A stretch of DNA of 58,112 nt from assembly GCA_007376405.1 (NCBI GenBank), contig VMGD01000009.1:1-58112 (forward strand), given 5' to 3'. A program made the translations under genes and the position numbers. The notes beneath the pieces were generated by a model. That model ran no database searches and was not told the DNA's origin. It was given only the letters and a program-made list of their open reading frames with translations. This DNA is from Microgenomates group bacterium Gr01-1014_7. GTDB lineage: Bacteria > Patescibacteriota > Microgenomatia > Daviesbacterales > UBA10151. Shown here piece after piece: positions 1,266 through 16,924 of this stretch (its first letter is position 1; each line of letters begins with the position of its first letter).

Positions 1266-2210
1266 CTAGAATATGAATTTGTATAAATTAATCAATGCAC
1301 CGAGTATTGTCAATGAGGTATCTTTTGGAGGTTGCGGCGGCAGGGGAGGGGCAGGTGGAATGGGTACCAGTCTTTCTCTTAAATTATTAATTTCCTGATC
1401 TTTTTCCTGTACAGTTTCCTGCAGGGCAAAAACCTGCTGATTGACTGATGACAGAGATGCTTGGAGATTATTGATCTGATCCTGCAAGGAGGGGACTTCT
1501 TTGCCGGTTCTTACCAGATTTTTATGCTCCTCGGAGGAAACCATGGAACGCATAATATCATCAATACTCATTGAACTATTGGTGTAAGTCTGCAAACCAC
1601 CCATGTCAGGGTCCCGGCCTAAAACTGTTATGTAAAGTCCACTTATCTTTGCACCGCGATCAGATGGCGGTTGAGAAATCCCACCTTTTACAATTTCCGG
1701 ACGCCAGGAGGACCAATTATCACCCGGACAGGTGGTTGATTGACCGGGCAGCTCTTTATGGCCCTTGACCGCATCCCAGGAATTTACATTGGATAAATTG
1801 GGGTAATTATTAATGAAAAAATCACAAAGAGTATGTGCGCAGTCCATCTGTTCACTAGATGGCACTCTTCCTGATGTAAAATTTCCCACCAGGCAAATAC
1901 CAAGTACCTGCTCGTTTAAGTTAGCTACATTAGCCCGTGCTGTTGAGATATCTCCGACATAAAACACCGTGCCATTTTTGGCAATTAAAAAATGATATCC
2001 GATCCCGCCCCAACCATTGCTGTTAATGTGAAAGTTGGCGATTTCATCCGGAGTTTGACTATCAGGACCGGCAGTATGATGTATTGCCAGAAAATTAACC
2101 TGACTTAAGGGTCTGACCCAGCTCCAGTTAAAAGAGTCCCCGGGAATCGTGTCTCTTATATCAACAAATTGATTGCCCAGGGAGGGAATTGAAAGATTAG
2201 TTCTGGCCAT
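1266..2210 (-). CDS. N-acetylmuramoyl-L-alanine amidase (Amidase_2/PGRP type) with C-terminal coiled-coil, Pro-rich and hydrophobic tail
   Basis: Motifs AIHHTAG, GWGGIGYHFLI, GHKELPGQSTTCPG. Start placed at the internal ATG (MARTNLS) because the longer ORF overlaps the plus-strand gene at 2386-2745. Confidence 0.8.
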   Translation of the reverse strand: MARTNLSIPSLGNQFVDIRDTIPGDSFNWSWVRPLSQVNFLAIHHTAGPDSQTPDEIANFHINSNGWGGIGYHFLIAKNGTVFYVGDISTARANVANLNEQVLGICLVGNFTSGRVPSSEQMDCAHTLCDFFINNYPNLSNVNSWDAVKGHKELPGQSTTCPGDNWSSWRPEIVKGGISQPPSDRGAKISGLYITVLGRDPDMGGLQTYTNSSMSIDDIMRSMVSSEEHKNLVRTGKEVPSLQDQINNLQASLSSVNQQVFALQETVQEKDQEINNLRERLVPIPPAPPLPPQPPKDTSLTILGALINLYKFIF

Positions 2211-2385
2211 TTTTGAGGGCAGGATGGAGTTATAGTACAGAACTAGTCTGCCTATGTCAACCCGTTCAAGTTTTGCTTCGCAAAATTTGCGCGGGTCAGC
2301 CACTTGACAGACTGATTTTTTTATTGGACTATTAAAGTATGGCCCCACTTCGTTAAAACTTCGCGGGGTAAAGGAGGTGAGTAAT

Positions 2386-2745
2386 TTGCAAATTATAGTA
2401 GCTTTAGTCATAAACGCTCTGGCACTTCTCCTGACAGCATATGTTGTCCCCGGATTTAAGGTTGACAATTTCACTACAGCACTGCTCGCTGCAGTTGTTT
2501 TGGGAGTAGTTAATACTTTCATCAAACCGGTATTATCTTATGTAACAGCACCATTAACGATTGTTACTCTGGGACTATTTACATTTGTAGTTAATGCAAT
2601 TGTACTTTTTATAGTTTCTTATTTTGTACCGGGGCTGATGATTGGCGGATGGGTTAGCGCAATTTTAGGAGCAATAGTGCTTTCGGTTGTGGCAACAGTT
2701 CTTAATTCATTACTTAAAGATCTGGCGAAATACGGGAAGAAGTGA
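2386..2745 (+). CDS. phage holin family 4 / DUF360 (YvlD-like) membrane protein
   Basis: Four hydrophobic helices with a typical PGFKVDNF...VLGVVNTFIKP pattern. AAGGAGG lies 8 nt before TTG 2386; the alternative start is GTG 2377. Confidence 0.7.
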   Translation: MQIIVALVINALALLLTAYVVPGFKVDNFTTALLAAVVLGVVNTFIKPVLSYVTAPLTIVTLGLFTFVVNAIVLFIVSYFVPGLMIGGWVSAILGAIVLSVVATVLNSLLKDLAKYGKK

Positions 2746-3430
2746 AGGATCTAAGCGTATGAGGTGTAGCCTTTACTGAAAGGCCTAGTTTTTTGACATA
2801 CTTTTCTACAATCCTCTGGATTGAGCGGGGAGTAAGTCTCATTGCTTCGCCGTCATTTTCCACTACAACTCTTCCCTGAAACCTGATAAATAAAGGTTTA
2901 AAGCTGTCCTTCCTTACGCATCTCCTCATATATAGATATTTTTCCAGCCAGCGACCCGAATTGACTCCGTTACGATTAAGCAAAACAAGCTCCGATACCC
3001 GAAGTCCTGTGGAAAATATAGTTTCCAGGATAGCTTTATCTCTTATTCCATTTATTTTTGTAGTATCAGGCGCATCAAGAAGCACCATAAGCTGTGTATC
3101 GTTTAATACTTTCAAAGGAGATGCTTCTTGTTTATCCAGTTTAACTTCTTCCTTGGATAAACTTTTAATATTTTGCTCTTCAAGGTAGCGTAAAAATGTT
3201 CTAAGAGCAATTAAATAACAGTTGCGGGTCTTTCGTTTTAATGGTTTTTTTGAAAGATAAAGTTTATAACTTTTAACAAGTTTTAAATCTACGCTCTCCG
3301 GCTCAATATCACCGGCAAAATCCAAAAATTTCTTTAAGTATTGGTCATAGTTTCGAATAGTCAACAAAGATGCATTGCGCTCAACTTCAAGACATTCAAG
3401 AAAGTCCGTTAGAAGGGAAGAAAGAATCAT
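2714..3430 (-). pseudogene. tyrosine recombinase XerC/XerD-like, degenerate (internal deletion, 3' truncation, no catalytic Tyr)
   Basis: N-terminal SAM-like domain and ILETIFSTGLRVSEL (Arg box) are present. The GKGxKxR segment is missing. The ORF ends at TPHTLRSF before the HxxR..Y region, unlike the intact paralog at 14619-15629. Confidence 0.5.
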
Positions 3431-4152
3431 AGAAAAGCCAAACCCAGAATTCCCAAAACAGTCAAAACCGAACCTATTATTGCTATAGCAAATGTTAACT
3501 CCGGGGTGCCGGGACCTCTGCCTGTTTGATCAACTAAATTATCAATGGTTCTGTAACCAGCTGAAGGAGTAGCTATTCCTGTTTGACCTTGAGGCAAATA
3601 AACAACTGCCGGTCCAGGGGTTGGACTGGCACAGCTACCAGCTCCAATAGTATAGCTGCCGTTTCCAACCGAGGATAAAACATCCGCTACTGTTCCGCGC
3701 TGAACCACATTGGAATCGGTTGTTTTGGCTTTATTATTGGGATCAAAATCAAAAGTAATGGCGGTTGCTCCGGCCGGTGCAGCCTCCAGAACAGTAAAAT
3801 TTATTGTGGCCAAAGTACCCTTGCCGGAAAAAGCAGAGGCAACAGAGGCCAGACCGGATATAGTTACCCGCCCCGTAGTTGAATCTATATTTGAACCCGG
3901 ATAATCGCTATAAATAGTACCGTTTAAAATGGAAGTGGCAGTAAAACGGGTGGGATCGTAAACTAAAATTGCATCTGTCCCGTCTGTGTCGGCGCTTTGA
4001 GCATCAAGAGTTACAGTCAGGGCAAAACCGCAGCCTTTATTAAAGGTACCTGATGTGGGGGAAACCGACAGCGTTGCAGCAAAGGCGGCAGACGGTAATA
4101 TAACCGTTATAATGATTATAATTGTTATAATAGTTATAATTTTTATATTCAT
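3427..4152 (-). CDS. cohesin-like domain surface protein with signal peptide and C-terminal TM anchor
   Basis: Signal MNIKIITIITIIIIITVILPSAAFA. Cohesin-like pattern TLSVSP...FALTVTLDA...ILVYDPTRF...ATINFTVLE...ITFDF. C-terminal hydrophobic tail. ATGA overlap with the next gene. Confidence 0.7.
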   Translation of the reverse strand: MNIKIITIITIIIIITVILPSAAFAATLSVSPTSGTFNKGCGFALTVTLDAQSADTDGTDAILVYDPTRFTATSILNGTIYSDYPGSNIDSTTGRVTISGLASVASAFSGKGTLATINFTVLEAAPAGATAITFDFDPNNKAKTTDSNVVQRGTVADVLSSVGNGSYTIGAGSCASPTPGPAVVYLPQGQTGIATPSAGYRTIDNLVDQTGRGPGTPELTFAIAIIGSVLTVLGILGLAFL

Positions 4153-4814
4153 TTAATTACAATTTCCAGATTTCCAACTTCTTCCAGCAAATCTTTTCCG
4201 CTTTCAGTACCCACAATGTTGGAATCTGCTGTTGAACCGGGAGTAAAATCCAAAGTTATTTTTGCAACTCCTTTTTTTAGGGTCTTAAAATTAACTATAG
4301 CAAAAATATCTTTTCCCGAAAAACCAGATGTTCCGGGAGTGGCAATTCCGGAAATACTCAAAAACCCCGAGGGGTCAACTTTGCTTAGTGGAAACTTTGA
4401 AAAAATTGTGCCCTGATGAATATCTCCGTCAATTGCCGAAAGCATTGCCGGATCAAACTTTGCCACCACATCAACTCCTGCTGTAAACTTTGGGGAATTT
4501 ACCCCAACCGAAACTGCAATTGTATCTCCGACTTTTACCTCTTTTTTATCGCTAGTTAAGAAAATTGCGCCTTTGTTTGATTCCCTGGTAGCAGGCAGAT
4601 TTAAAATTCCACCATCAGGGGAAGCTGTAGAAGAAGGTTTGATAACAGAACGAAGCCCAAAAATAAGTTCTATGACCACAATAATACCTAAAACTATGAA
4701 AATATTTTTCGGGGTTATCCATTTACGTCCCGCAGAAATTGGAGGTTGAGGGAGCTGAGGTGTAGATGTTCCTCCTGTCGGAACAAAAATATTCGGCTGA
4801 GCAGTATTATCCAT
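4149..4814 (-). CDS. N-terminally membrane-anchored cohesin-domain protein
   Basis: TM segment IFIVLGIIVVIELIFGL, then VKVGDTIAVSVGV...VDVVAKFDPAMLSAI...FAIVNFKTLKKGVAKITLDF...DSNIV, a classic cohesin beta-sandwich pattern. Confidence 0.75.
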   Translation of the reverse strand: MDNTAQPNIFVPTGGTSTPQLPQPPISAGRKWITPKNIFIVLGIIVVIELIFGLRSVIKPSSTASPDGGILNLPATRESNKGAIFLTSDKKEVKVGDTIAVSVGVNSPKFTAGVDVVAKFDPAMLSAIDGDIHQGTIFSKFPLSKVDPSGFLSISGIATPGTSGFSGKDIFAIVNFKTLKKGVAKITLDFTPGSTADSNIVGTESGKDLLEEVGNLEIVIK

Positions 4815-4851
4815 ATAAGTTTACAATACTACATTTCTACTGTCTTTGTCA

Positions 4852-7827
4852 TCATGGGCTTGGACTTGGTGACGGTGTCGGGCTTGGACTGGAACTCGGA
4901 GTCGGAGTTGGACCAGCTGACGGAGAGGGAGTTGGTGTAGTAGAGGTACCTGTGGGGGTCGGGCCGCCAGAGGGAGTAGGAGAAGGTGAGGTAGCAGGAC
5001 TGATAATAGTAAGCGACCCTGCCGGGGTGGGGGATACGGTAATAGACAAAGGCCCTGGCTCCGGTTCGGAATCATCGGAATTGTTAAAATAAGGTCTCAT
5101 ACAAGCCCAGTCAAAGGAATTAACCCTACCATCACCGTTAAGGTCAGCCCTTTTTTCTCCTGTTGCAGCTTGCGCCACCACCCATTCCCGAATCATCTGT
5201 CCAAAATCAGCACTGTTAATTTTTCCATCCCCCTGCACCGGGAAAATATCACCAACAGGTAAATCCAGCGAACCTAATCTGGTAGTGCCCCTGTTGGCAA
5301 AAAATTCAACTACCCTCCGCAGAGTACCCGGAGCTTTTATGCCTATACGATAACCTCTACCTTGTTGAAGTCTCGTGCGGAGTCCGGATATTAATCCGTT
5401 TGCACCGATACTGACGGTTTCCTGTACAACACTTCCGCCCTCACGGCCTTCGGCAATAGTTGCAGTTACATTAGATAAGGTTTGTGTCAAAGTTTGCCTG
5501 CAGAAAAAGTTAGCTCCCAGTTGCAGTTGGGATGTTGCAACAGAACAGGTGGTGGACTGCGTTGCGGCACCATCCTGACGGGTTAAAATGATTGGGAAGG
5601 ATTGGCCGGTTGTGGCTGTCTGATTCAGGGTGGCAGTAACTTGACTGTCACTCCAGGAATCAATATTAAGGGCAGTTGAGCCGGTTTTAACAGACCCGTC
5701 CCTTCCTTGGCTCGCTCCAAAGAATCTACCGGTTAATGTAAAGCGCACGCCTCCATCAACACCAAGGTCACATGATATGCCTCCACCAGTAACATCCAAA
5801 GTGGGATCAGGATTAACAATCCTTATGGTAAATGGCCCTATTGGACCGGAATCTGTTGCCTCACCGGCAGGACCGGTACCTAAAAACTTAACCCAAATTT
5901 CATGGTCTATATCAACAGTTCTATTTCTGAAGCTGTAGGGAAGAGTCAGGGGAGATGCTGTATAAGCTACCTCCGTATAAAGACTTGCATCCCCCAACCC
6001 TGCGCTTGATTCGGCAATTCTTACCCTGGTAGTTGTAGCAGCCAAAGGATCAACAGTTAACTCTGCCGAATTATCAACACAACCGCTGCCTGCCGTTCCT
6101 GTTATAACCATACCCCTTGTTTGTCCGGAGAATCTATAGCTTTGGCCGGGCTGAGTGGGTACTCTCGGAGTATAATCCGATACAGGTCTTATAGAACCAT
6201 CAGCATTAACATTTATATCAACCTCTGACCCGTCAGGAGCATGCACGGTAATAAAAACATCATTGGCAATATTATTTGTTCTGTAACCCCAAACTCCGTC
6301 AACATTATGGAAAGCCGCCACGTCTACCCTTTCTCCAATCCTTATCCTTCTGTTTCTAACCCAGTTTGTTTCACCCTGCCCTCTGAGACGAACTTCGGTT
6401 CCCTGATATATACAGGCGGAAAGAGCAGGTCTTCTGGCAACTCTGACTATAAATGGCGCGCAAACTTCGGCATTGCTGCCCGTTGCATCTGTAGCAATTC
6501 TTGATTCTACTGTGTATTCGTTTTCCCTGGCAGTACTTGTATTGGCCAAAATATTCATAGCCCAGCCTGAATCCGGAGCTTGAATTCTACCTGGTCTTTG
6601 GGTAAAGGTAATATTCGGTATTGTTGTACCCGGAGAAGGCGCAGGAGTAATAGGAAGTACAGTGGATGTGGGCTGTAAAACAATGCTTGTTGCCGGAGTT
6701 CTTGTGACATTCAACCGCACGTTTCCACCGCTGTCCCTGACAGGATATACATTCTCACCACCCGGCCCGGTTTCACCAGCTAGCGCGGTTAAACCTTCAG
6801 GAACTGCATTAGTACAAATTAGAGCAACAGGCGATGGAGTAGGGGTTGGGGAAGGACACAAAGTCGTAGTAAAGCTGCGAACAGGTGAATGAATACCTGC
6901 GCCTGTTACAGGAGTACCCACGGGATTCGCCTGACCGTTAAAAACCCTGACAAAGTAAGTTCTGCCCGGCACAGGTCTAAATACTCCTGCTGGTCCTGTT
7001 GTAATCAGATGATTAAAACCTGTTAGATCAGCGGTGTATTGAGTTCTTCCCGCAATAGCCACAAAATCCCTATGGTAAAAGTTTGTGCCCGCAAAATTCG
7101 AATCTTCTGAAATATCAATCCAGAATCTGTCACTAAACGACTGACCCTGCCAGTGTATGATAATTCTTCCCAGCTGATCATTAGTCAAATTAGATGAGAA
7201 ACAACTTGGTAGTAAATCAAGGGTAAATGCAACATCAGTAATAAAGGGCTGACCCGGGGCAAGGGATGGGGTTGGAGAAGGGGATATTCCGGGCAGAGAG
7301 TATTGGCCGCTAACATTGTCGGTTGAGGAAATCAAGCTTGTGCTCGTGGCGGCAATAAATCTGGTATTTGCCCCGTCAATAGTAATCGGGACAGGGCTTG
7401 ACCCTGCAGCTGCCAAAAGTCTGGCTGTAAGAGTACCAACTTCCACTCCTCCTCTTCTTGGTTCACCCGAAGTATTCACCACCACAAATCTTCTATTATC
7501 CGCAGTTATAAAAACCTGTCTGAAATTAGGGGTTGTTGGAGAAAATCTTACTATTTCTATCTTGGTGGCATCAAAATTTAATGAAATATCAGCGCCGGAA
7601 ACATCGGCGTTAGAATTCATCATGATCCTGATAGGAAATTCAACTCCGGCAGCCCTGGTATCTGTTGCAGGAACCAGTCTAAAAGAAGCTACCTCTCCTG
7701 TAGCCCTGGAACGCAAAATCTGCTGCTGGCGGACAAGATACATTGTTGCCGGTATGGCAACAAGCAACGCTATTATACCTGCCAGCATAAGCCACTTTCT
7801 ATTTAAGTTTTTAACTGCGTTAATCAT
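4852..7827 (-). CDS. large secreted/surface protein with N-terminal anchor motif, cohesin-like module, uncharacterised modules, dockerin and PT-rich tail
   Basis: 991 aa. N-terminus ...LLVAIPATMYLVRQQQILRSRA. Dockerin ADLNGDGRVNSFD. C-terminal PTPSPS tail. Confidence 0.85.
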   Translation of the reverse strand: MINAVKNLNRKWLMLAGIIALLVAIPATMYLVRQQQILRSRATGEVASFRLVPATDTRAAGVEFPIRIMMNSNADVSGADISLNFDATKIEIVRFSPTTPNFRQVFITADNRRFVVVNTSGEPRRGGVEVGTLTARLLAAAGSSPVPITIDGANTRFIAATSTSLISSTDNVSGQYSLPGISPSPTPSLAPGQPFITDVAFTLDLLPSCFSSNLTNDQLGRIIIHWQGQSFSDRFWIDISEDSNFAGTNFYHRDFVAIAGRTQYTADLTGFNHLITTGPAGVFRPVPGRTYFVRVFNGQANPVGTPVTGAGIHSPVRSFTTTLCPSPTPTPSPVALICTNAVPEGLTALAGETGPGGENVYPVRDSGGNVRLNVTRTPATSIVLQPTSTVLPITPAPSPGTTIPNITFTQRPGRIQAPDSGWAMNILANTSTARENEYTVESRIATDATGSNAEVCAPFIVRVARRPALSACIYQGTEVRLRGQGETNWVRNRRIRIGERVDVAAFHNVDGVWGYRTNNIANDVFITVHAPDGSEVDINVNADGSIRPVSDYTPRVPTQPGQSYRFSGQTRGMVITGTAGSGCVDNSAELTVDPLAATTTRVRIAESSAGLGDASLYTEVAYTASPLTLPYSFRNRTVDIDHEIWVKFLGTGPAGEATDSGPIGPFTIRIVNPDPTLDVTGGGISCDLGVDGGVRFTLTGRFFGASQGRDGSVKTGSTALNIDSWSDSQVTATLNQTATTGQSFPIILTRQDGAATQSTTCSVATSQLQLGANFFCRQTLTQTLSNVTATIAEGREGGSVVQETVSIGANGLISGLRTRLQQGRGYRIGIKAPGTLRRVVEFFANRGTTRLGSLDLPVGDIFPVQGDGKINSADFGQMIREWVVAQAATGEKRADLNGDGRVNSFDWACMRPYFNNSDDSEPEPGPLSITVSPTPAGSLTIISPATSPSPTPSGGPTPTGTSTTPTPSPSAGPTPTPSSSPSPTPSPSPSP
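5080..5265 (-). other. dockerin type I-like module (two EF-hand-like Ca loops)
   Basis: PVQGDGKINSADFGQMI ... DLNGDGRVNSFDWACM. The second loop fits DxNxDGxVNxxD exactly. Confidence 0.7.
7348..7695 (-). other. cohesin-like module at the N-terminus of the 991-aa protein
   Basis: FRLVPATDT..GVEFPIRIMMNS..VSGADISLNFDATKIEIVRF..VGTLTARLLA..PITIDG pattern. Confidence 0.5.
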
Positions 7828-10448
7828 GGTCTAAAATTCCTGTTCCATATATCAAAATCCGCGTCAAGCACTCCGCCAATACAATCAAAGTTTGCTGTTT
7901 GTGTAGTGAGCGGCCCAAATCTTTCATTTCTCCAGATATTAAAGTCTCTAAGATCTGTATTTCCATCACCATTTGCATCCCCTGTGGGCCTTTGTATACA
8001 GACAGCAACAGATGGAGCGGGGGAAGGGGAAACACTGCATTGAGCTACTGTGAAGCTGGGCGGACGAGGAAATTCTCGTTGTTGGGCAGTATCTATACCA
8101 AAACTGTGTCTTCCATCAGTAAATACTCTGAAATGATAGATGGTATTTGGGGTAAGTTGCAAAGCTTGCCCGCCTTGAATACGGTGGAAATTACTTAGGT
8201 TTACTTCCGGAAAAGTAATAGTGGTTGGGTTGAGAGCAGAATAGAATGCATTATAATAATTATCATCGAAGTTTGGCCTGGTTGAAATATCAACATAGAA
8301 ACCAGGTCCGGTAGTTCCATCGGGACGGTTAACTGTTCCAGGTCTTCCTGAAAATACAATTGAACCTCCAGCCTGGGTGGGGCCGGAAACACATGATTGG
8401 ACTCCTGTATGTCCCAAATCAAATATCTGTAAAACCCCGGGGGGAGGGGGAGGAGAAGGTGGTGTAGGAGAAGGTGATGCGGTACAAACGATTAATCTGT
8501 TTGCAGTAATGGTTGTTGGCATGGAACCAGTTAACACCTGTATTTGCCCTCCTGTTCGTTGTACTATCCTTACATAATAGTCAATATTTGGTGTAATACT
8601 TAACGGATCCCCAGGATTTACTGTACCAACAGAAACAAAACCAGAAAAATTAGTTTGAGCAAGAGATGAACTTACGCTTTTTTCAAAAACCTGGCCGGTA
8701 AAGTTATTACTCGAGCTTATTTGAACAAATAAAGTGGAAGGCAAATTGCCACTGCCTACCCAGTTAATGCTGGCAGCGCTGTATGTAGAAGGGTTATTAA
8801 TACAGCTTGGAGGAGTAATTGAATTTATGGTAATTTGTCCTGCAATAGGGGAAGGGGTTGGAGTAGGGGTAAGGGAAGGGGTTGGAGTAGGGGAAAGTAT
8901 TGGAGAATAATTAATACCTGCAGAAAATGGCAAACCTATAGGTACACCTGTATCAGAATAAAACTGGGCGCAGACCCATCTTGATCCGTAGACGGTTCCT
9001 GCCCTTAAACCAGTCAAATCCCATCTATCAATAGTGAATGTGTTTCCGGATCTTGTTCCCCTGGTTGTATTATTCATGTCAATGATCTCAACATTCGACG
9101 GTCCACCTGCAATAATGTTGTCTAAATTATATCTACAGTCAGCATCTGATACACTGCTGACTGATACCCTAACAAAAGTAGGCAAACTTGGTGCCGAAGT
9201 GGGAGAAGGTGTAGGAGTGGCAGATGGTCTGGGGGTAGGACTTGGAGAGGGGGTGGGAGTGGGAGTAGCCGCACCTGCCACCGTAACATTTGCAGTACAC
9301 TCTGCTATTATTTGAGTGCCGGCAGCGTTTCGATTTTGGAAAGTCAATGTATAATTTCCAGCAGGGGTGGAACTTGTAATAGGTATGATGAATGTATAAC
9401 GGGTCTGATTTGGAATTGGGGTGGTGAGTATTCCCCCTTGAGCATTGATGTACCATGAGCAATTACCTCCCGGGTAGACACAGGCAAGATAATCTCCAGC
9501 AGGCGGAGGACCCAACAAAGCAGTAAAAGTGGCTATTTGACCAGCTGTTAATGTGGTTGATGGTGTAACAACTACTGCACATGTACTGGCAGGAGTCGGA
9601 GTTGCAGGAGGAGCAGTAGGAGTTAAAGTTGTTGCGCTGCATTGGGTAGAACAGGCTGAACAGGAAATACAGGTAACTAACCCGTCAGCACTCGATGTAC
9701 CGGGTTGGCAAAGATGAGCGCTACATACAGGTGCACCCGTCCTCCTGTCACAACTGCATGTTTGTCCAGAGCCAGGAGTTATAAGAGGGAATTGGGGGAT
9801 AGTAGGCTGTGGAGAGCAAAAAGGAAGACAACTTGGTGGAGGTGTTGGTCCACAATAGGGAGGACAACTTGGCGAAGGTGGTGGCCCACAATTAGGATAG
9901 CATGGTGGAAGAGTTGACCCTCCTCCTCCCGGCGGATCTCCTGAATACCATGTCATATAGCTTATGGGTTGCAGAGACCCGCAGATCCAACCCTGATCGC
10001 CAAAACAGGGCTGGTTAAATACATCAATCTGAATAGTCCAACCAGGAGCGGTTGGAGCAATTGCAAACCCGGCAGGATTTGCAGGGTCTATGGGATGCCC
10101 CTGGATATCTTGAGTTATTAAACCACTGTTACAATTAGCAACAGGGGGACCCTGACAGGCAAAAACATAAATAAATCTTCCCGGTCCACCTGCACATGTT
10201 CCTGTAGAAGGATTACAACCACTAGCTAACGTAGCTAACGGACTGGAACCAAAAACGTTGGTGTAGTAGCCTGATAAAAATCTTACAGCTCCAGGGGGAA
10301 GCACATCTGCTTTCGGTTTAAAAATTTGAGTTCGCTGGACCAGGTATAAGGTGGCAGGCAAAGCTATTGCCACAATTGCCAAAATTATCCATTGTATGAA
10401 GCCAGCTTCTTGCTTCGCAATAAAGCCTTTATTGTTAAATTGTTTCAT
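7824..10448 (-). CDS. large secreted Cys/Pro-rich surface protein with N-terminal anchor motif and C-terminal dockerin-like module
   Basis: N-terminus ...IVAIALPATLYLVQRTQIFKPKA. C-terminus GDANGDGNTDLRDFNIW. Start taken at the ATG in caATGAAACAATT, which is shared with the paralogous start at 12657. The ORF could extend to 10466. Confidence 0.8.
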   Translation of the reverse strand: MKQFNNKGFIAKQEAGFIQWIILAIVAIALPATLYLVQRTQIFKPKADVLPPGAVRFLSGYYTNVFGSSPLATLASGCNPSTGTCAGGPGRFIYVFACQGPPVANCNSGLITQDIQGHPIDPANPAGFAIAPTAPGWTIQIDVFNQPCFGDQGWICGSLQPISYMTWYSGDPPGGGGSTLPPCYPNCGPPPSPSCPPYCGPTPPPSCLPFCSPQPTIPQFPLITPGSGQTCSCDRRTGAPVCSAHLCQPGTSSADGLVTCISCSACSTQCSATTLTPTAPPATPTPASTCAVVVTPSTTLTAGQIATFTALLGPPPAGDYLACVYPGGNCSWYINAQGGILTTPIPNQTRYTFIIPITSSTPAGNYTLTFQNRNAAGTQIIAECTANVTVAGAATPTPTPSPSPTPRPSATPTPSPTSAPSLPTFVRVSVSSVSDADCRYNLDNIIAGGPSNVEIIDMNNTTRGTRSGNTFTIDRWDLTGLRAGTVYGSRWVCAQFYSDTGVPIGLPFSAGINYSPILSPTPTPSLTPTPTPSPIAGQITINSITPPSCINNPSTYSAASINWVGSGNLPSTLFVQISSSNNFTGQVFEKSVSSSLAQTNFSGFVSVGTVNPGDPLSITPNIDYYVRIVQRTGGQIQVLTGSMPTTITANRLIVCTASPSPTPPSPPPPPGVLQIFDLGHTGVQSCVSGPTQAGGSIVFSGRPGTVNRPDGTTGPGFYVDISTRPNFDDNYYNAFYSALNPTTITFPEVNLSNFHRIQGGQALQLTPNTIYHFRVFTDGRHSFGIDTAQQREFPRPPSFTVAQCSVSPSPAPSVAVCIQRPTGDANGDGNTDLRDFNIWRNERFGPLTTQTANFDCIGGVLDADFDIWNRNFRP
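7827..7991 (-). other. dockerin-like module (first loop canonical, second degenerate)
   Basis: DANGDGNTDLRD fits DxNxDGxxxxxD; the second repeat is DCIGGVLDADFD. Confidence 0.5.
9795..9902 (-). repeat. three tandem 12-aa Cys/Pro repeats (36-nt units)
   Basis: CYPNCGPPPSPS / CPPYCGPTPPPS / CLPFCSPQPTIP. Confidence 0.7.
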
Positions 10449-10462
10449 TGTTAAATTGTTAA

Positions 10463-10873
10463 TCATGGTCTTGGTGTTGGACTGGGACTTGGTGTCGGGC
10501 TTGGATTAACGGTTGTCGGGGATGGAGTAACTGATGGACCGGTACCGGTAGGAGAAGGTGACACAGCAGAAGTAGGAGCCGGACTGCCGGATGGGGAAGG
10601 GGTGGAAGTAGGTTGAGTACCCGGAACATTAGGGGCAGTAATAACTAAATCCACTCTGGCATTACCGTCGGCATCCAGTTTTAAAATAGTCCTATTATTT
10701 CTGGTGGCCACATTAGGCCCGGAAAAAGTTACTCCTCTGGGCGGTTCTACTGCTTTGGATTTTAAAGTCTGTTCCTTTTTGATAAGCTGAAGGCCCAGAG
10801 GAATACCCGTAATTAAAATTAAAAGGATTAAAACAGTTATTAAATTTTTTTTGTTCTTTAAGAAGTCATTCAT
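10463..10873 (-). CDS. small secreted PT-rich protein with the shared N-terminal anchor motif
   Basis: LITVLILLILITGIPLGLQLIKKEQTLKSKA followed by a PT-rich tail. ATGA overlaps on both sides. Confidence 0.7.
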   Translation of the reverse strand: MNDFLKNKKNLITVLILLILITGIPLGLQLIKKEQTLKSKAVEPPRGVTFSGPNVATRNNRTILKLDADGNARVDLVITAPNVPGTQPTSTPSPSGSPAPTSAVSPSPTGTGPSVTPSPTTVNPSPTPSPSPTPRP

Positions 10874-11124
10874 GGATAAGTTAACCTTAATTTAACATTT
10901 GGTTCAGTGCTTACTGGAGTTCCCGCAGCATTAGTGCCAATATCAACAAAGCCGGTACCTGTACGGAAAAATTCCATCGGAGCAGTTCCCGTTGCCCTGG
11001 GTTTAAAAATTTGGGTTTGACGGGCAAGATACATAGTCAGGGGAATAGCTATCAATAAAATAAGCAATCCGATAATAGTTAAAAGCTGCTTTTTAGATTT
11101 AAATAACAAAGTGATCCGCTCCAT
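10870..11124 (-). CDS. small secreted protein with the shared N-terminal anchor motif
   Basis: MERITLLFKSKKQLLTIIGLLILLIAIPLTMYLARQTQIFKPRA. The longer ORF (to 11169) starts at a TTG and adds an implausible 15-aa extension. Confidence 0.55.
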   Translation of the reverse strand: MERITLLFKSKKQLLTIIGLLILLIAIPLTMYLARQTQIFKPRATGTAPMEFFRTGTGFVDIGTNAAGTPVSTEPNVKLRLTYP

Positions 11125-11211
11125 AGGGACTATATTATAATAATGTATTATAGTAGAGGCTTTTGTCAATCCTTAAGGTGCATGTTAAGGGAAGTCTGAA
11201 TTTTTAATAAA

Positions 11212-11257
11212 AACGGCAATCTCAGTTTTTAAATCAATAAGTATTTTAATTGCCGTT
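11212..11257 (-). terminator. hairpin AACGGCAAT-(28 nt)-ATTGCCGTT followed by a T-run on the minus strand, possible terminator after 11306-12385
   Basis: 9-bp perfect stem. The minus-strand sequence continues TTTATTAAAAA. The large loop makes this tentative. Confidence 0.35.
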
Positions 11258-11305
11258 AGTGTTTGTCATTCTGGCTTGTCCCCGATTACAGGTGCAATAA
11301 GGTTA

Positions 11306-12385
11306 TTAACGAGGAAGAAGACCAAAATCTATTATCCAGTCACTGATAGAGCCGTCGTTCCTGGCAGAAGGAAGAGGATAAGTGATAAAAAAACCATTAT
11401 TTGCCGTAGTTAATTCATATTCTGCAGGTACGGTTAAATCCAGCCTGTAGGAACCCGCAGGAAGATTCTGGAAACTGTATCTTCCATCAGATCCGGTGGT
11501 TGTACTGAAGACTTGCCCGTTGGGATAGTTTGCCTGATTTGTTAATTCAACTGACATGTTTGAAAGAGCTTGTTCGCTTGAACTCCTGCTTCTATTTCTA
11601 TTCAAGTCTTCAAAAACGATCCCGGATACTGTATAAGTTCTTTGTGAGGGCGAACTGGACGGGGTAGGACTGGGGTTTGCTGAAATGGACGGCTCAACAA
11701 TAGATCCTGCCGGAGTGAATTCGCATTGGCCTCTGGTAAGGGTAACATGGTCGAACCATCCTGCCCCTCCTCCCGTATCTGATCTAAGATAGATCTTAAA
11801 CTGCGCGCCCTGTCTTGGCGAAATAATTGAATCGTTAAGATAAATATTTTGTTCATCCCAATTCCAGTCAGTTCCGGGGCCGGTGAAACGAAAGACTTTT
11901 TCTTGTCTGGGAGCTGCAACCGATCTAATTCCCACAGTTAACTGGTCACCATAGGTCCGTATTTTGCGGAACACCCGCAAACAAAGCGTTTCACCTTGAT
12001 TAAACGTATCATTAATAGTTTGGGTTAATTGAAATGCTGCTCCCTGGGGGTTAACAATTTTAGCCGACCCTGCCCGGTATCTTGAACGCAGTTCCGCAGG
12101 AGCTACTGCAACAGTTGTATCCTGCTGACAGGGGTATGCACCTGCAGTTTCAGGACGCACTAAACCAAGTGAGTCTTCACAGGTCCAGCTAACTAACCGT
12201 GCGCTTGGCGAGGCAACTTCAAAACTGCCGTTTCGCAACAAGTTTACAGGAGGAGTTTCTTGAGCTTTGGGTTTAAAAACAGTAGTACTTTGGGAGAGTA
12301 TAAGCAGGACAGGGAGAGCTACCAGCAAAATAATAATAGGTATGGCAGGCAATACAAACCCCATTTGTTTTCTTAAAAAGCTCAT
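11306..12385 (-). CDS. secreted protein with shared N-terminal anchor motif, jelly-roll/CBM-like region and C-terminal SdrD-B/Cna-B-like domain
   Basis: N-terminus ...LLVALPVLLILSQSTTVFKPKA. C-terminus YTVSGIVFEDLN...GSDGRYSFQNLPAGSYRLDL. Confidence 0.8.
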   Translation of the reverse strand: MSFLRKQMGFVLPAIPIIILLVALPVLLILSQSTTVFKPKAQETPPVNLLRNGSFEVASPSARLVSWTCEDSLGLVRPETAGAYPCQQDTTVAVAPAELRSRYRAGSAKIVNPQGAAFQLTQTINDTFNQGETLCLRVFRKIRTYGDQLTVGIRSVAAPRQEKVFRFTGPGTDWNWDEQNIYLNDSIISPRQGAQFKIYLRSDTGGGAGWFDHVTLTRGQCEFTPAGSIVEPSISANPSPTPSSSPSQRTYTVSGIVFEDLNRNRSRSSSEQALSNMSVELTNQANYPNGQVFSTTTGSDGRYSFQNLPAGSYRLDLTVPAEYELTTANNGFFITYPLPSARNDGSISDWIIDFGLLPR

Positions 12386-12408
12386 AATTTATAGTGGTCA
12401 TAAAGCAA

Positions 12409-12657
12409 TTAATTTGTCAAGCCCTCTAAATCCCTTATCCTGATAGTTACATCTAAGAAATCAGTATCATAAACTCTTTGTCCATTAACTTCTCTGGTGG
12501 GCAGGGGTGAGCCCTGAGGATCAGTAACCTCAAAAGCATTATATATTTCATTACTGGCTTTGGATTTTAATATTTTTTCAGTCCTGACCAGATAAATAGT
12601 CAGGGGAATAGCTATCAGCAATATTACCAATAAACTTAAACTAATTAATTGTTTCAT
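12409..12657 (-). CDS. small secreted protein with the shared N-terminal anchor motif
   Basis: MKQLISLSLLVILLIAIPLTIYLVRTEKILKSKA. The upstream 19 codons of the long ORF are made of repeat sequence (LRLRSGQA). Confidence 0.6.
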   Translation of the reverse strand: MKQLISLSLLVILLIAIPLTIYLVRTEKILKSKASNEIYNAFEVTDPQGSPLPTREVNGQRVYDTDFLDVTIRIRDLEGLTN

Positions 12658-12659
12658 TG

Positions 12660-12683
12660 CCTGCCCTGAGCGAAGTCGAAGGG
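12660..12683 (-). repeat. 24-bp GC-rich mini-repeat (cccttcgacttcgctcagggcagg on the minus strand)
   Basis: Matches 39121-39145 and 21700-21724. Absent from the otherwise paralogous site at 10436-10470. Confidence 0.6.
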
Positions 12684-12717
12684 TTAAATTGTTAAATTGT
12701 TTTAAATTATTCATAAT

Positions 12718-14562
12718 TTATCTGCATTCATTTCTTCTGTCAATCTGATCATACGCCCAGCTATAAGATATACATCTGGCAGGACATTCAGTTGCTGTAC
12801 CGCAAGCAGCGCCCCTTCCCAAATTCCTTCCTTGAGCAGGGCTTGGAGTGGGAACAGTACATCTGTAATACCCTCCTGCAATACCATATGTGCAGGTAGC
12901 TGGAGGACGGCAGGGAGTGCCGCCAATACTGCATATTTGATTTAGCTCTATGTAGGCAGGGGAAGTAGTGGGAGTTTGAATACTTCCGGGAGTTGGATAA
13001 GTATAACCAGGACCTCTTGGAGGTGTGGGACCTCCACTTCCTTGCGAGCTAACAGTAATGTAAGTATCAACACTCTGACATAAGGGAGTATTGTTTTGAT
13101 CAAAAGCTGTAAACCTGAATACATAATTTCCAATGGCATCAGCTCCGTAGTTGGGATAAGTTACACTCCATATGCCTGTCCGGGAATTAAAGTTTTGCTG
13201 AAAGTTTGGAATATCCGCGGGAGGATTAATGGGTATTCCTCTAAATAACCCTGACCACTGTGCATTTGTTGCTGATGAAGGAATCTGCGTAACTTCAAAA
13301 GTCCCGGTGCCCCCAACTACGATTATAGCCGGATCACTTAAGGAAGAACCTCTACAGTTTATTCCTCCGGTACAGTTAACTTTAAGTGCACAATATGGAA
13401 GTGAGCCTGTAAGGGGGGAAGGGGATGGAAGAACAGTTCCCAGGAAATTTAGATAGTTAAAATTAAATAAAACCGGCCTGGTTGTCCCGTCCGAAAAACC
13501 TATGGTCATATAAACAGGGAAAAGTTGGGGAGTACCAAATGTACCCGGAAGGTTGATGGGGATTTCCATCGTACTTGAATCAAAAGTGCGTCCATTGACG
13601 GATATGGATGTTATTGTTCTGCGCGGAGGAACTGTCGGAGAAGGTGTCGGAGTTGGCGGTAAAACGGGAGCGGTAATAATTAAAGGCTGCGGGTCAGAAT
13701 CCAAAACTTCCTGTGAACCATTTCTATGCATATACGCTACCAGGTTATATGTACCGGGAGAGGTGGCTGGGGGAATTGCTATGATATATAAATTGGGGAT
13801 TACTTCTGAAGCAAGCAAAGCATTAATTTCTTTGGTACTTTTGAATGTACTTTGAGCAAAAGCTTCTTTAATTATTCCGGTCCTTAAACCTACTGGTTCC
13901 AGTGCAAAAATTTCCCTGTACCTGTCCGGGTCGGAAGGATCCAGCCCATCCTCATGCTCAATCAAAAAAACACTAATAATTCCTCCTGCCGCACTCTGAC
14001 CGGGAGAGCCAATAATCTGTACATCAGTATCTACTGCTCCTCCATAGAAGGAAGGTATCAGGGTTGCATACCAGTCCCTAATAGCCCGGGGAAAATTGGG
14101 ATTGGTATTAAAAATACAGGGCGCAAGCCTTGATTCGCTGTAAGTACACATAAAATCAGCAAATCTGTCACTGGTTGGGAATTGAGTATTAAAACTATTG
14201 AAAAGGCATCTTAAACTTAAATTAATATCTGTTGTCGGCCGGGTGGGTTCACAACCCAATGCATCAGCATAACCTTCTTCCCCCTGTGCTCCGGATTCTT
14301 CTATCCAAAGAGTTAAAACAAAAGCCGGATTCCAGCCATTAGCTATAGACTGGTTAACTATTGTGTCCCAATTTTGCAACTGGGCATTTGGCCATCTTGC
14401 CCGGATCAGGTTTCTTACTGCTTGCGGATTGGCAACCCTTACATCAGTATCCCTAAAGGGGATAGTATAAGTTAATGTCAGAGCATCCGGATTTAGGGAA
14501 TGTGCGTCTTTGGGAATTACAAAAAAGATTATGCTGAAAACAAGTAAAAGTATTAATTTCAT
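12718..14562 (-). CDS. secreted protein, function unknown, Cys-rich C-terminus (first gene of the surface-protein operon)
   Basis: Signal MKLILLLVFSIIFFVIPKDAHS, PT linker, 614 aa. The LWIEESGA segment only faintly resembles a glycosidase catalytic Glu context. Confidence 0.75.
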   Translation of the reverse strand: MKLILLLVFSIIFFVIPKDAHSLNPDALTLTYTIPFRDTDVRVANPQAVRNLIRARWPNAQLQNWDTIVNQSIANGWNPAFVLTLWIEESGAQGEEGYADALGCEPTRPTTDINLSLRCLFNSFNTQFPTSDRFADFMCTYSESRLAPCIFNTNPNFPRAIRDWYATLIPSFYGGAVDTDVQIIGSPGQSAAGGIISVFLIEHEDGLDPSDPDRYREIFALEPVGLRTGIIKEAFAQSTFKSTKEINALLASEVIPNLYIIAIPPATSPGTYNLVAYMHRNGSQEVLDSDPQPLIITAPVLPPTPTPSPTVPPRRTITSISVNGRTFDSSTMEIPINLPGTFGTPQLFPVYMTIGFSDGTTRPVLFNFNYLNFLGTVLPSPSPLTGSLPYCALKVNCTGGINCRGSSLSDPAIIVVGGTGTFEVTQIPSSATNAQWSGLFRGIPINPPADIPNFQQNFNSRTGIWSVTYPNYGADAIGNYVFRFTAFDQNNTPLCQSVDTYITVSSQGSGGPTPPRGPGYTYPTPGSIQTPTTSPAYIELNQICSIGGTPCRPPATCTYGIAGGYYRCTVPTPSPAQGRNLGRGAACGTATECPARCISYSWAYDQIDRRNECR

Positions 14563-14618: not shown

Positions 14619-15629
14619 TTATTCTCTTTTTGCTAAAGGGTGATACTTTCGGTGAGTTTCTTGAGCAAATCTATCCGAGGCATTCACATACCTTGTAGTT
14701 GTATTAAGAGATTCATGGCCCAATAAAATTTGAATTGCAGCAGGACTGGCACCCTCTTCAACCAAGTAAGTAGCAAAACCATGCCTAAACGAGTGAGGGG
14801 TAGTAGGAAGATTGATCCTTAAAGCTTCTCTGTATTTTTGAATTATCCCTTCAATATAACGGGCTGTAAGTCGCTGGGGTATACCTTTTCCGGCTGTCTT
14901 ACTTTTAGTTGGTACAAATAGCGCTTGTTCTCGATCCTGTCTCAATTTTAAATAACTCTCCAAGTAAGACTTGGCACGATCGGTTAAATAAACAAATCTT
15001 TGTTTTCTACCTTTACCGGTTATAAAAATCTTACCCTCATCATTTAAATCACGTTTATTTAGATTGACTAATTCGGAAATACGCATCCCCGTAGAAAAAA
15101 GGGTTTCTAAAACTGCTCTATTTCTTGCACCAATCAGCAAGTTTTTTTCCAAACGAGAGGGGCTTTCTATCAAAGCAACTAAATCTTGAAAATCCGCCAC
15201 ATTCGGATGGGGTCTTTCTCTTTTAACCATCTTGAAGAAATCAGGAATAATTGGACAATCATATTCTTGATCGATTAAGAACCTAATGTAGGCTCTCACA
15301 GCTGACAAACATCTGTTAATACTAGTTGCAGTTAATCTGCGTGGCGAATCCTCTTTCAGAAAGGAGGTTTTTCTATCATTTGATGCAAGATAGGCTTTGA
15401 ATTCCAAGACAGAGCGTTTATCTAAATCTTTAATAAATAGGTTTCTCGATTCGAGAAAGTTGTCAAACAACAACAAATCGCTTTTGTAATGGTAAATCGT
15501 CTCAGGAGAATAATTATTGGTTTCCAAAAATAAATAGAAGTCTTCAATTAAATCCAATCTTAAAGCTTTATGATTACCAATACTACTTTTAGGTTCAGAC
15601 ATTTGATTTAAGGGCGTTAAGCCTTTCAA
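14619..15629 (-). CDS. tyrosine recombinase XerC/XerD family (intact)
   Basis: RNRAVLETLFSTGMRISEL, GKGRKQR, HSFRHGFATYL, LLGHESLNTTTRYV (R-K-H-R-H-Y set present). Confidence 0.9.
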   Translation of the reverse strand: MKGLTPLNQMSEPKSSIGNHKALRLDLIEDFYLFLETNNYSPETIYHYKSDLLLFDNFLESRNLFIKDLDKRSVLEFKAYLASNDRKTSFLKEDSPRRLTATSINRCLSAVRAYIRFLIDQEYDCPIIPDFFKMVKRERPHPNVADFQDLVALIESPSRLEKNLLIGARNRAVLETLFSTGMRISELVNLNKRDLNDEGKIFITGKGRKQRFVYLTDRAKSYLESYLKLRQDREQALFVPTKSKTAGKGIPQRLTARYIEGIIQKYREALRINLPTTPHSFRHGFATYLVEEGASPAAIQILLGHESLNTTTRYVNASDRFAQETHRKYHPLAKRE

Positions 15630-16095: not shown

Positions 16096-16924
16096 ATTTT
16101 TATATTTTAATCCTTTTACACCAACCTTTAAATTTTATCATCAGTAGGTAAGTATAATTATCTTACTTGTAATGCTGATTACAAGAATCATATCATGCCT
16201 AAATGGGCTTTGTCAAGCGTTAAAATGAACTCCTTTAGAACTACATATACTATTAAGAATTATTCATGAAGATTTCTTTATTAAAAATTAGGTAAAAATA
16301 ATAAAGGAAAACCCTCTCTATCTTCCTCTCATGCCTGTTTAGGCTGAGGCCCGTAAAGGGCCCTAAAACGGTTTGAAAGGGAAGGGGTGCTACCAAACAT
16401 CATGTAAATAAGCTTGTCACAAAGACCCAAACTATAAAACTTAATGAAAATAATTTGCATGAAAAATATTATGAATTTTTGGGGGCGAATATAGCCTTTT
16501 TAAGTACCAGAAAAATTTGGTAAAAATTTCCAGCTTTTGGAATTAAAATATTTCCTAAAGGTTCAAAAGGTCTCCCCTTGACCAAAATATATATCCATAT
16601 ATTGTGCGACATCAAACATAGAAGGGAATTTAAAAGACTTCCCAAAAAGAGGATAAGAGGAAGAGACTTCATCACTCTTTACCACGAAGTGGCAAGCTTT
16701 GCTTATCTTAACTGTTACTCTTATACCGGACAAGAACACCTCTCTTCTCGGGTGGGCTTCGGGTATTGTCAGTGAGTCCCATAGTTTTCCACATTCGTGC
16801 CTGTTGACTACATCAAACCATATCATACTTTCTTTTCACGAAAATTTGCATTTTTTTCACGCCTCTCCTCTACTTTAGCTTGTTATAACAATATAATTGA
16901 AAATTGTGAATTGAAAATTCAATT

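Follow-up and report, generated by a model that had tools for sequence, protein, structure and literature searches.

What kind of signal is carried by six consecutive, otherwise unrelated proteins encoded on contig VMGD01000009.1 of the uncultivated, groundwater-type Microgenomates group bacterium Gr01-1014_7 (assembly GCA_007376405.1), and what might read it? The window is the whole stretch of DNA that was analyzed, 58,112 nucleotides long. Within it, positions 4852-12714 hold six consecutive minus-strand open reading frames (ORFs) of 991, 880, 136, 99, 359, and 101 amino acids, which form a tight operon in which several stop and start codons share 4 nt. Each product begins with a short basic stretch, a hydrophobic helix, and then a conserved peptide, which together make up a block of 36 residues. 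A preliminary description of this DNA had proposed that the block is a lineage-specific sorting or processing signal, comparable in logic to YSIRK or PEP-CTERM. We find that it is indeed a lineage-specific N-terminal signal that heads unrelated extracytoplasmic proteins and is under selection at the protein level. Our favored reading, to which we assign a probability of roughly 0.6, is that the block is a class of Sec-type signal peptide of Candidatus Daviesbacteria and close Microgenomates relatives, predicted from sequences and structure models to be cut after an invariant alanine.

The block and its anatomy

The six blocks align without gaps, and their consensus in the window consists of KK, a 21-residue hydrophobic helix containing A-I-P, and then Y-L-V-x-Q-x-Q-I-[FL]-K-[PSG]-[KR]-A. 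All six peptides quoted in the preliminary description are present at the N-termini of the six ORFs, and its consensus, used as a regular expression, matches only those six places in the six-frame translation of the window. It had also suggested building a hidden Markov model (HMM) of the N-terminal block. A 36-column HMM separates the six ORFs cleanly (45 to 70 bits, with the next six-frame ORF at 6 bits) and reveals a wide spread in databases. The blocks are as follows:

7696..7803, minus strand: signal block of the 991-aa dockerin protein (gene 4852-7827), NRKWLMLAGIIALLVAIPATMYLVRQQQILRSRA, then TG; HMM score 60 bits

10302..10409, minus strand: signal block of the 880-aa protein (gene 7824-10466), ending in IALPATLYLVQRTQIFKPKA, then DV; HMM score 59 bits

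10745..10852, minus strand: signal block of the 136-aa protein (gene 10463-10873), KKNLITVLILLILITGIPLGLQLIKKEQTLKSKA, then VE; HMM score 50 bits

10987..11094, minus strand: signal block of the small protein 10870-11169, KKQLLTIIGLLILLIAIPLTMYLARQTQIFKPRA, then TG; HMM score 70 bits

12257..12364, minus strand: signal block of the 359-aa protein (gene 11306-12385), ending in LLVALPVLLILSQSTTVFKPKA, then QE; HMM score 46 bits

12550..12657, minus strand: signal block of the small protein 12409-12714, MKQLISLSLLVILLIAIPLTIYLVRTEKILKSKA, then SN; HMM score 61 bits

The invariant Ala codon of the 991-aa protein's block lies at 7702-7704. The block of the 359-aa protein, which has an SdrD_B/prealbumin-like domain, is the most divergent of the six, and the 136-aa protein (10463-10873) has an orthologue in a related locus, L013. 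Database gene calls give the two small ORFs (99 and 101 aa) lengths of 79 and 82 aa. The real start of 10870-11169 is likely the one giving 79 aa, matching database protein P0001, and 12409-12714 likely starts at 12657 to give 82 aa, matching database protein P0002. Past the block, the mature parts are unrelated, as had been stated, with no significant mutual similarity among the six (best BLASTP E = 0.008). A "weaker version" of the motif, LRSVIKPSS, had been reported in the gene at 4149-4814; there the HMM has no match, and the orthologues diverge completely past the membrane helix, so this part of the description falls away.

With the conserved Ala numbered -1 and residue counts taken over 163 sequences where stated, an n-, h-, and c-region anatomy can be read directly off the sequences. 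The n-region has K/R at -34 (78%) and -33 (86%), with the dibasic pair in 124 of the 163 sequences, followed by N/Q at -32. The h-region comprises 21 strongly hydrophobic residues, from -31 to -11, with conserved A-19 (77%), I/L-18, P-17 (85%), Y-13 (80%), L-12 (99%), and V-11; in one subclass the mid-helix A-I-P is replaced by G-I-x-A-G. The c-region has 10 polar, basic residues, [RQK]-Q-x-Q-I-[FL]-K-[PSG]-[KR]-A (-10 to -1): R/Q/K at -10, then Q-9, T/Q-8, Q-7 (98%), I-6 (90%), F/L-5, K-4 (82%), P/S/G at -3 (50/40/8%), R/K at -2, and A-1 (100%). Its mean net charge is +2.8, versus +1.6 for the n-region. Relative entropy is 2.3 to 4.6 bits per column from -13 to -1 and less than 1 bit from +1 on, with the +1 position dominated by A, T, S, and D. 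The motif comes in two co-varying flavors, QTQIFKP[KR]A and QQQI[LI]KS[RK]A, both of which occur within the window's operon: Pro-3 pairs with Phe-5 in 100 of 102 cases, and Leu or Ile-5 pairs with Ser-3 in 55 of 61.

Distribution, cargo, and conservation at the protein level

Is the block confined to this one cluster, as would be expected if the 5' ends of the genes had simply been duplicated? The answer is no. An exhaustive HMMER search with the 36-column profile against 1.84 billion cluster representatives matched 1083 protein clusters at E ≤ 1e-3, 45 of them at E ≤ 1e-10. In the matches listed (150 of the 1083), the block is N-terminal in 150/150, the conserved Ala falls at residue 29 to 68 (median 42), and the proteins are 49 to 1461 aa long. 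In the genomes, in-frame degenerate-DNA patterns were scanned against one genome per GTDB species, and matches were then checked by HMM. A narrower first DNA scan gave seven stretches, of which five were real, and those five recur in the wider scan. Verified loci were found in 13 Candidatus Daviesbacteria metagenome-assembled genomes (MAGs), one "Microgenomates group" MAG, and three "Patescibacteria group" MAGs. They were also found in third-party MAGs, about 12 in number, whose label reads "uncultured Gammaproteobacteria (binchicken...)". In NCBI taxonomy, Daviesbacteria belong to the Microgenomates group within the Patescibacteria group, and all verified genomic matches with informative labels come from Candidatus Daviesbacteria, Microgenomates, or Patescibacteria MAGs. 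Among pattern matches in genomes labelled as other taxa (Staphylococcus, Flavobacterium, Nostoc, and others), none had the motif, and their number equals the chance expectation; an out-of-frame DNA pattern scan gave 14 matches, 0 on the motif, for a rough chance estimate of about 13. Across 42 fetched loci, some of which are duplicates of the same contig, there are 77 motif ORFs, at a density of at most 4 per 8 kb, and single Daviesbacteria-type MAGs have several separate loci (e.g., CALRFD01 and MFDK01).

The loci labelled "Gammaproteobacteria" (binchicken_..., ERP..., SRP...) are L004, L006, L016, L024, L033, L036, L038, L045, L047, L052, L053, L055, and L067. Several of the contigs so labelled hold the recombinase, cohesin, and RuvC/YebC neighbors seen in the window, and the label of these third-party MAGs is probably wrong.

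The conservation of the block acts at the protein level, because the DNA of the six blocks is only 37 to 60% identical and the same residues often have different codons (identical residues share a codon in only about 20 to 60% of cases). The motif signals of the six unrelated window proteins are 38% identical overall and 47% identical over the last 19 residues; the mean identity among the classical signal peptides of four orthologous cohesin anchors is 32%. A functionally meaningless, recent duplication or gene conversion of 5' gene ends in one paralogous cluster has in its favor that the six genes adjoin one another and that a 42-nt patch (repeat family D7) is 86% identical between two blocks, but it is scarcely credible given the low DNA identity with its many synonymous differences, the unrelated mature parts, and the spread over 1083 clusters and many MAGs and loci; the low DNA identity also rules out a DNA-level repeat.

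What do these signals export? Pfam matches on 87 family members of 150 to 900 aa include dockerin in 14 and DUF1554 in 5, with scattered FG-GAP, M64 and M11 peptidase, CBM4_9, BNR, beta-helix, TIG, and SdrD_B domains; most members have no match. As judged from these families, the matched cargo modules are all extracytoplasmic. In a check of 97 motif proteins of at least 150 aa, a hydrophobic segment at the C-terminus was absent from all of them, a second membrane segment occurred in one, and Pro/Thr/Ser linkers occurred in 32.

The small motif proteins of about 80 aa (10870-11169, 12409-12714, and 10463-10873 in the window; P0003-P0019 in the database) fall into families defined by mature parts of 40 to 50 residues, with patterns such as ..NAFEVTD...LDVxIRIxDL and ..PNVKLRITY.P. 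These short modules also recur in far larger proteins, where they come first in the mature part and Pro/Thr linkers follow. A Foldseek search of the small mature domain against the PDB found nothing significant (best E = 1.6, weakly Ig/filamin-like).

When the six proteins and neighboring gene products were scanned, neither Pfam-A nor NCBIfam yielded a model covering the N-terminal block. The sole N-terminal family match, TarQ, was rejected as membrane-helix noise (E = 0.0076; 15 bits against a cut-off of 350). Literature searches on secretion and sorting signals in the Candidate Phyla Radiation (CPR), Patescibacteria, Microgenomates, and Daviesbacteria found no description of the motif in the papers searched.

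A probable cleaved Sec signal peptide and its alternatives

How would such a signal work? In the reading that we favor, the n- and h-regions would direct the protein to SecYEG and keep its N-terminus on the cytoplasmic side. Residues Q-7 to A-1, the final seven, would emerge from the helix in extended form on the outer face of the membrane, where a type I signal peptidase (SPase I; S26 family) would cut after the invariant Ala. The mature protein would then start with a small residue (A/T/S/D), with its first beta-strand 3 to 8 residues later. The released proteins would be surface or secreted proteins, many of them with dockerin modules, which would bind the membrane-anchored cohesin proteins from the operon's end. 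Because Y-13, L-12, Q-7, I-6, [FL]-5, K-4, and [KR]-2 are conserved far beyond the needs of SPase I, an additional lineage-specific reader may take part, such as a signal peptidase, either co-evolved or a paralogue, whose groove extends over P7-P1, or else a factor for targeting or retention.

Several lines of evidence argue for this reading. The block is N-terminal with a positively charged n-region, as in Sec/SPase I signals, and a hydrophobic h-region is followed by a polar c-region; the h-region is at the long end, and the 10-residue c-region lies within the 9 to 11 residues that are normal in Gram-positive bacteria (PMC12190922). The -1 residue is always Ala, and at -3 the Ser (40%) and Gly (8%) conform to the expected pattern, with S-x-A an accepted SPase I P3-P1 pattern (PMC12190922); the Pro found in the other half does not. 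The earlier claim that the ending is not a typical AxA site thus stands for P-x-A (about 50% of the family) and not for S-x-A/G-x-A (about 48%), which fit the (-3,-1) rule.

Structure models point the same way. For the 12409-12714 family, AlphaFold2 predicts a helix at residues 2-26, ending at -8, low confidence for residues 28-34 (-7 to -1; predicted local distance difference test [pLDDT] score of <50), and a confident small beta domain at 38-82, formed by the 45-residue mature part. For the 10870-11169 family, the helix ends at -6 and is followed by lower-confidence coil (pLDDT of ~57). The substrate groove of SPase I, in structural work on LepB, binds an extended segment of about seven residues, and the nonhelical segment from Q-7 to A-1 would be approximately the length held there.

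Homologous proteins place the boundary at the same offset, with domains that start 1 to 7 residues past classical AxA sites. In the 991-aa protein, the cohesin-like first domain starts 5 residues past the Ala, and homologous cohesin domains begin 1 to 3 residues past the classical sites AFA↓A (3427-4152) and VLA↓A (L013), where the arrow marks the site. A 719-aa protein of L013, which shares 34% identity with the 991-aa protein across an alignment of 596 residues, has a classical TFA↓Q site 6 residues before the same strand, and a 629-aa protein of that locus has a motif-like n/h-region but ends in VYA↓DD. Short signals of the classical kind are also encoded in this operon and at other places in the window (AHS↓L, AFA↓A, and AYA↓A), one of them on the operon's first gene, of 614 aa; since they coexist with the motif, the organism has ordinary SPase I substrates and the motif forms a separate class. 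Conservation, moreover, breaks off directly past the invariant Ala, where small residues follow. The wide and strictly N-terminal occurrence, the selection at the protein level, the extracytoplasmic and single-pass cargo, and the lack of a dedicated peptidase gene in the syntenic loci also count in favor of this reading. In all, the evidence from sequences and models points to cleavage at the motif's end, not upstream of it, in which case the motif would be the c-region itself.

Other observations weigh against this reading. A Pro at -3, present in about 50% of sequences, breaks von Heijne's (-3,-1) rule. Pro is likewise absent from the accepted P3 residues (PMC12190922). The c-region charge (+2.8) exceeds that of the n-region (+1.6), which is unusual for a translocated flank and makes the c-region resemble the "Sec-avoidance" c-regions of twin-arginine translocation (Tat) signals. 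The very hydrophobic h-region, at 21 residues, has the length of a membrane anchor, and SPase I specificity does not explain the conservation from -13 to -4, with near-invariant L-12 and Q-7 and a strong Y-13. The cleavage, finally, is a prediction from sequences and models. We infer that something beyond a generic peptidase reads the signal.

Set beside ordinary monoderm Sec/SPase I signals, the block shares the N-terminal position, basic n-region, h-region containing a helix breaker, roughly 10-residue c-region ending in Ala, small +1 residues, extracytoplasmic cargo, and interchangeability with AxA signals in homologues. However, such signals are little conserved even between orthologues, whereas in the block L-12, Q-7, and A-1 are 98 to 100% conserved and ten more positions (-22 to -2) are 77 to 99% conserved, with equivalent residues pooled, across more than 150 unrelated proteins. 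The Pro-3 in half of the sequences and the c-region charge of +2.8 set it apart as well. The block is best filed as a lineage-specific, sequence-constrained subclass of Sec/SPase I signal peptide for which Pfam and NCBIfam have no existing model.

It is tempting to go further and propose an undescribed N-terminal sorting pathway of Daviesbacteria. The extended Q-I-[FL]-K-[PS]-[KR]-A, perhaps with the A-I-P/Y-L-V face of the helix, would be recognized by a lineage-specific enzyme or receptor in the membrane, which would route or process a regulon of surface proteins to a cohesin-dockerin surface assembly; a candidate reader is a specialized signal-peptidase paralogue with a Pro-tolerant S3 pocket. 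We regard this proposal as tentative and, on present evidence, somewhat unlikely. If it were true, the cohesin-dockerin assembly might help these presumed episymbionts attach to hosts or substrates.

In a rival reading, which we consider unlikely, the motif would mark a surface-protein regulon for a lineage-specific, non-housekeeping enzyme: an S26 paralogue, as SipW is for TasA, or a rhomboid-like protease or sortase-like enzyme, making it an N-terminal counterpart of LPXTG/sortase or PEP-CTERM/exosortase. The geometry, with a basic cluster, a membrane helix, and a conserved outer-face motif, mirrors C-terminal sorting signals, Q-7 and L-12 are invariant, the two co-varying flavors occur within one operon, and the classical signals alongside make the motif a separate class. 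The search for a partner enzyme, which the preliminary description had proposed, does not bear out a dedicated sorting system of the PEP-CTERM or sortase kind. No S26 peptidase was found in the window (family scans and tblastn) or in the fetched loci (tblastn), and no dedicated peptidase is encoded in the syntenic loci. With Bacillus subtilis SipS and Staphylococcus aureus SrtA as tblastn queries, the search took in the window and the loci up to L056; with the L039 sortase, it took in the window and every locus fetched by that point. The sole sortase that these queries found was that of L039. In this locus (1968-7224), from the Patescibacteria MAG Ike-100m-12, three motif genes of 126, 125, and 1284 aa have a sortase gene (PF04203) directly upstream of them, which speaks for a dedicated enzyme, but it is the only place where a sortase adjoins motif genes; a second sortase gene lies about 10 kb from a motif gene in L008. 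The three L039 proteins have no LPXTG-type C-terminus, none of the 97 motif proteins has a C-terminal sorting signal, and a sortase-type acyl-enzyme would capture the signal fragment, not the cargo. Motif genes most often have tyrosine recombinase genes (10 loci) and cohesin genes (7 loci) as neighbors. The anatomy of the block instead fits a cleavable Sec-type signal.

How far do the parallels with known sorting elements go? LPXTG/sortase and PEP-CTERM/exosortase follow a like logic, with a short outer-face motif beside a membrane helix and a cytoplasmic basic cluster on many surface proteins of one lineage. However, their signals are C-terminal and their transpeptidases are in the same genomes, whereas the block is N-terminal and the C-terminal tripartite signal is found in 0/97 proteins. 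YSIRK-G/S (PF04650/TIGR01168) of staphylococci and streptococci is likewise a conserved, lineage-restricted element in the cleavable signal of many unrelated surface proteins, a distribution suggesting that it influences the site or mode of their secretion. There the element sits at the n/h boundary and the cargo carries LPXTG, whereas the block has conserved h- and c-regions and cargo without C-terminal anchors. The comparison made earlier is thus apt as an analogy, a conserved element inside a signal peptide, but membership fails: the YSIRK model has no Pfam/NCBIfam match in the six proteins or the 87 family members, and the YSIRK sequence was absent on inspection. SipW-cognate signals (TIGR04088; TasA, TapA, and camelysin-type proteins) are also a recognizable subclass beside ordinary signals, for which Bacillus has a dedicated S26 paralogue. 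Their consensus differs, NCBIfam gave no TIGR04088 match, and sipW adjoins its substrates, whereas no S26 gene was found beside the motif clusters. The extended signal peptide region (ESPR; PF13018) of autotransporters and two-partner secretion proteins is likewise conserved and makes the signals of large surface proteins long and recognizable; it is thought to modulate translocation kinetics. It is, however, an extension ahead of a normal signal in Proteobacteria, whereas the block conserves the h- and c-regions in a monoderm CPR lineage, and Pfam gave no ESPR match.

A further alternative is that the block is never cut and serves as an N-terminal signal-anchor. The helix would stay in the membrane, and YLVxQxQIFKPKA would be a stalk that attaches to one shared partner (cell wall, membrane protein, or lipid head groups), so that the proteins are tethered to the cell surface. 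The 21 strongly hydrophobic residues of the h-region, the three conserved basic residues directly past the helix, the disfavor of SPase I for Pro-3, and the conservation from -13 to -4, which suggests binding to something, would all fit. We nevertheless judge this improbable: conservation stops sharply at the invariant Ala and small residues follow, AlphaFold2 has low confidence for the last 5 to 7 motif residues (pLDDT of <50 and ~57), homologous domains bear cleavable AxA signals at the same offset (one L013 homologue uses a classical signal), and dockerin cargo would need no second anchor.

Very unlikely, in our view, is a Tat-type signal with a lysine pair, in which [NST]-K-K-[NQ]-[LI]-[IL] would mimic Z-R-R-x-Phi-Phi and the basic c-region would act as a Sec-avoidance element. 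A KK pair does not support Tat export in studied systems; here KK dominates, and RR occurs in only 4 of the 163 sequences. The h-region is far more hydrophobic than Tat h-regions, and the cargo proteins are large, have many Pro/Thr linkers, and in some cases carry Ca-dependent dockerins. The n-region pattern, the long signal (median, 42 residues), and the basic c-region do speak for Tat (cf. PMC12190922). Among the window ORFs scanned, there was no TatA or TatC.

Three other classes were rejected. A lipoprotein (SPase II) signal would have Cys at +1, found in 0/163 sequences. A type IV prepilin G↓F site is also found in 0/163, and the conserved motif comes past the helix, not before it. For a translational arrest peptide, the motif lies just 10 residues past the helix and half of the copies have no Pro, which argues against that function.

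The CPR bacteria are almost all uncultivated, and how they build their surfaces and make contact with hosts is poorly known. A tag that marks more than 1000 protein families as exported would allow a simple and specific listing of the surface and secreted proteome of Daviesbacteria from metagenomes, where generic predictors may call a 21-residue helix with Pro-3 a membrane anchor. Phylogenetic profiling with the tag offers a concrete route to the peptidase or receptor that recognizes it, and the tag ties the secretome to a cohesin-dockerin operon that is conserved and hypervariable and has recombinase genes on both sides. Should the signal require a processing enzyme of its own, it would amount to a new sorting system at the N-terminus; otherwise, it remains an unusual case of a signal peptide whose sequence is strongly constrained, with Pro at P3.

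The cohesin-dockerin locus and its neighbors

The operon extends past the six motif genes at both ends and is bracketed by two recombinase genes:

12718..14562, minus strand: gene that opens the operon, its 614-aa product having a short signal of the classical type (…VIPKDAHS, then LNP), no motif, and no Pfam match

4149..4814, minus strand: 221-aa cohesin-domain protein with a plain N-terminal membrane helix

3427..4152, minus strand: 241-aa cohesin-domain protein with a classical signal (AFA, then ATL) and a C-terminal hydrophobic anchor

14619..15629, minus strand: intact XerC/D-like tyrosine recombinase that brackets the cluster upstream, its position conserved in related loci

2714..3430, minus strand: second tyrosine recombinase, truncated and without the catalytic Tyr region, that brackets the cluster downstream

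The two cohesin genes are the last of the operon and follow the 991-aa gene, whose product has a type I dockerin at residues 864-914 in addition to its cohesin-like first domain. The 241-aa cohesin protein is likely the surface scaffold for this dockerin protein. The locus is syntenic in at least six other contigs (L010, L012, L013, L036, L071, and L072), in the order YebC, RuvC, DUF5656, XerC/D-like recombinase, variable motif genes, 991-aa-type protein, two cohesin proteins, second recombinase, amidase_2, and (gyrA). The 3' genes of the cluster (991-aa-type and cohesins) are conserved, and the 5' genes vary between genomes.

Compared with its full-length orthologues in L012 and L013, the downstream recombinase of the window is without about 20 internal residues (the GKGGKER region) and about 47 C-terminal residues that include the catalytic tyrosine; the L010 orthologue ends likewise, just past HTLR. 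The truncated enzyme is probably inactive, as judged from these missing parts, and the truncated form is kept in the two genomes (window and L010). An invertible segment or shufflon was considered and rejected, as no inverted repeats bracket the cluster in the window. The direct-repeat families D1-D4 are codon repeats of the Pro/Thr/Ser linkers.

The 241-aa cohesin protein ends with a hydrophobic helix and no basic tail, and its C-terminus has no NCBIfam match. In 4/4 orthologues a conserved P/A-G-T-x-E/Q-L-T precedes the anchor (3427-3513 in the window; the others are L010 17546-18268, L012 4271-4972, and L013 6404-7111). Together with the anchor, this motif might be the cohesin protein's own C-terminal sorting signal.

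Outside the operon, an IS200-like (Y1 transposase) gene at 183-866 lies between 48-nt imperfect direct repeats (112-159 and 883-930; 79% identical), and related transposase genes are found in L004, L008, and L024. The cluster (4000-14000) has a G+C content of 0.43 to 0.46, versus about 0.37 to 0.41 in the flanks, much of it because of the linker codon repeats D1-D4, and between 8000 and 14000 its GC skew is positive. Upstream of the recombinase and a 166-aa ORF that forms a pair with it, some 800 bp (16096-16924) are mostly without an ORF of at least 90 aa and contain a 16-nt palindrome at 16875-16896; this stretch is a possible regulatory region for the operon.

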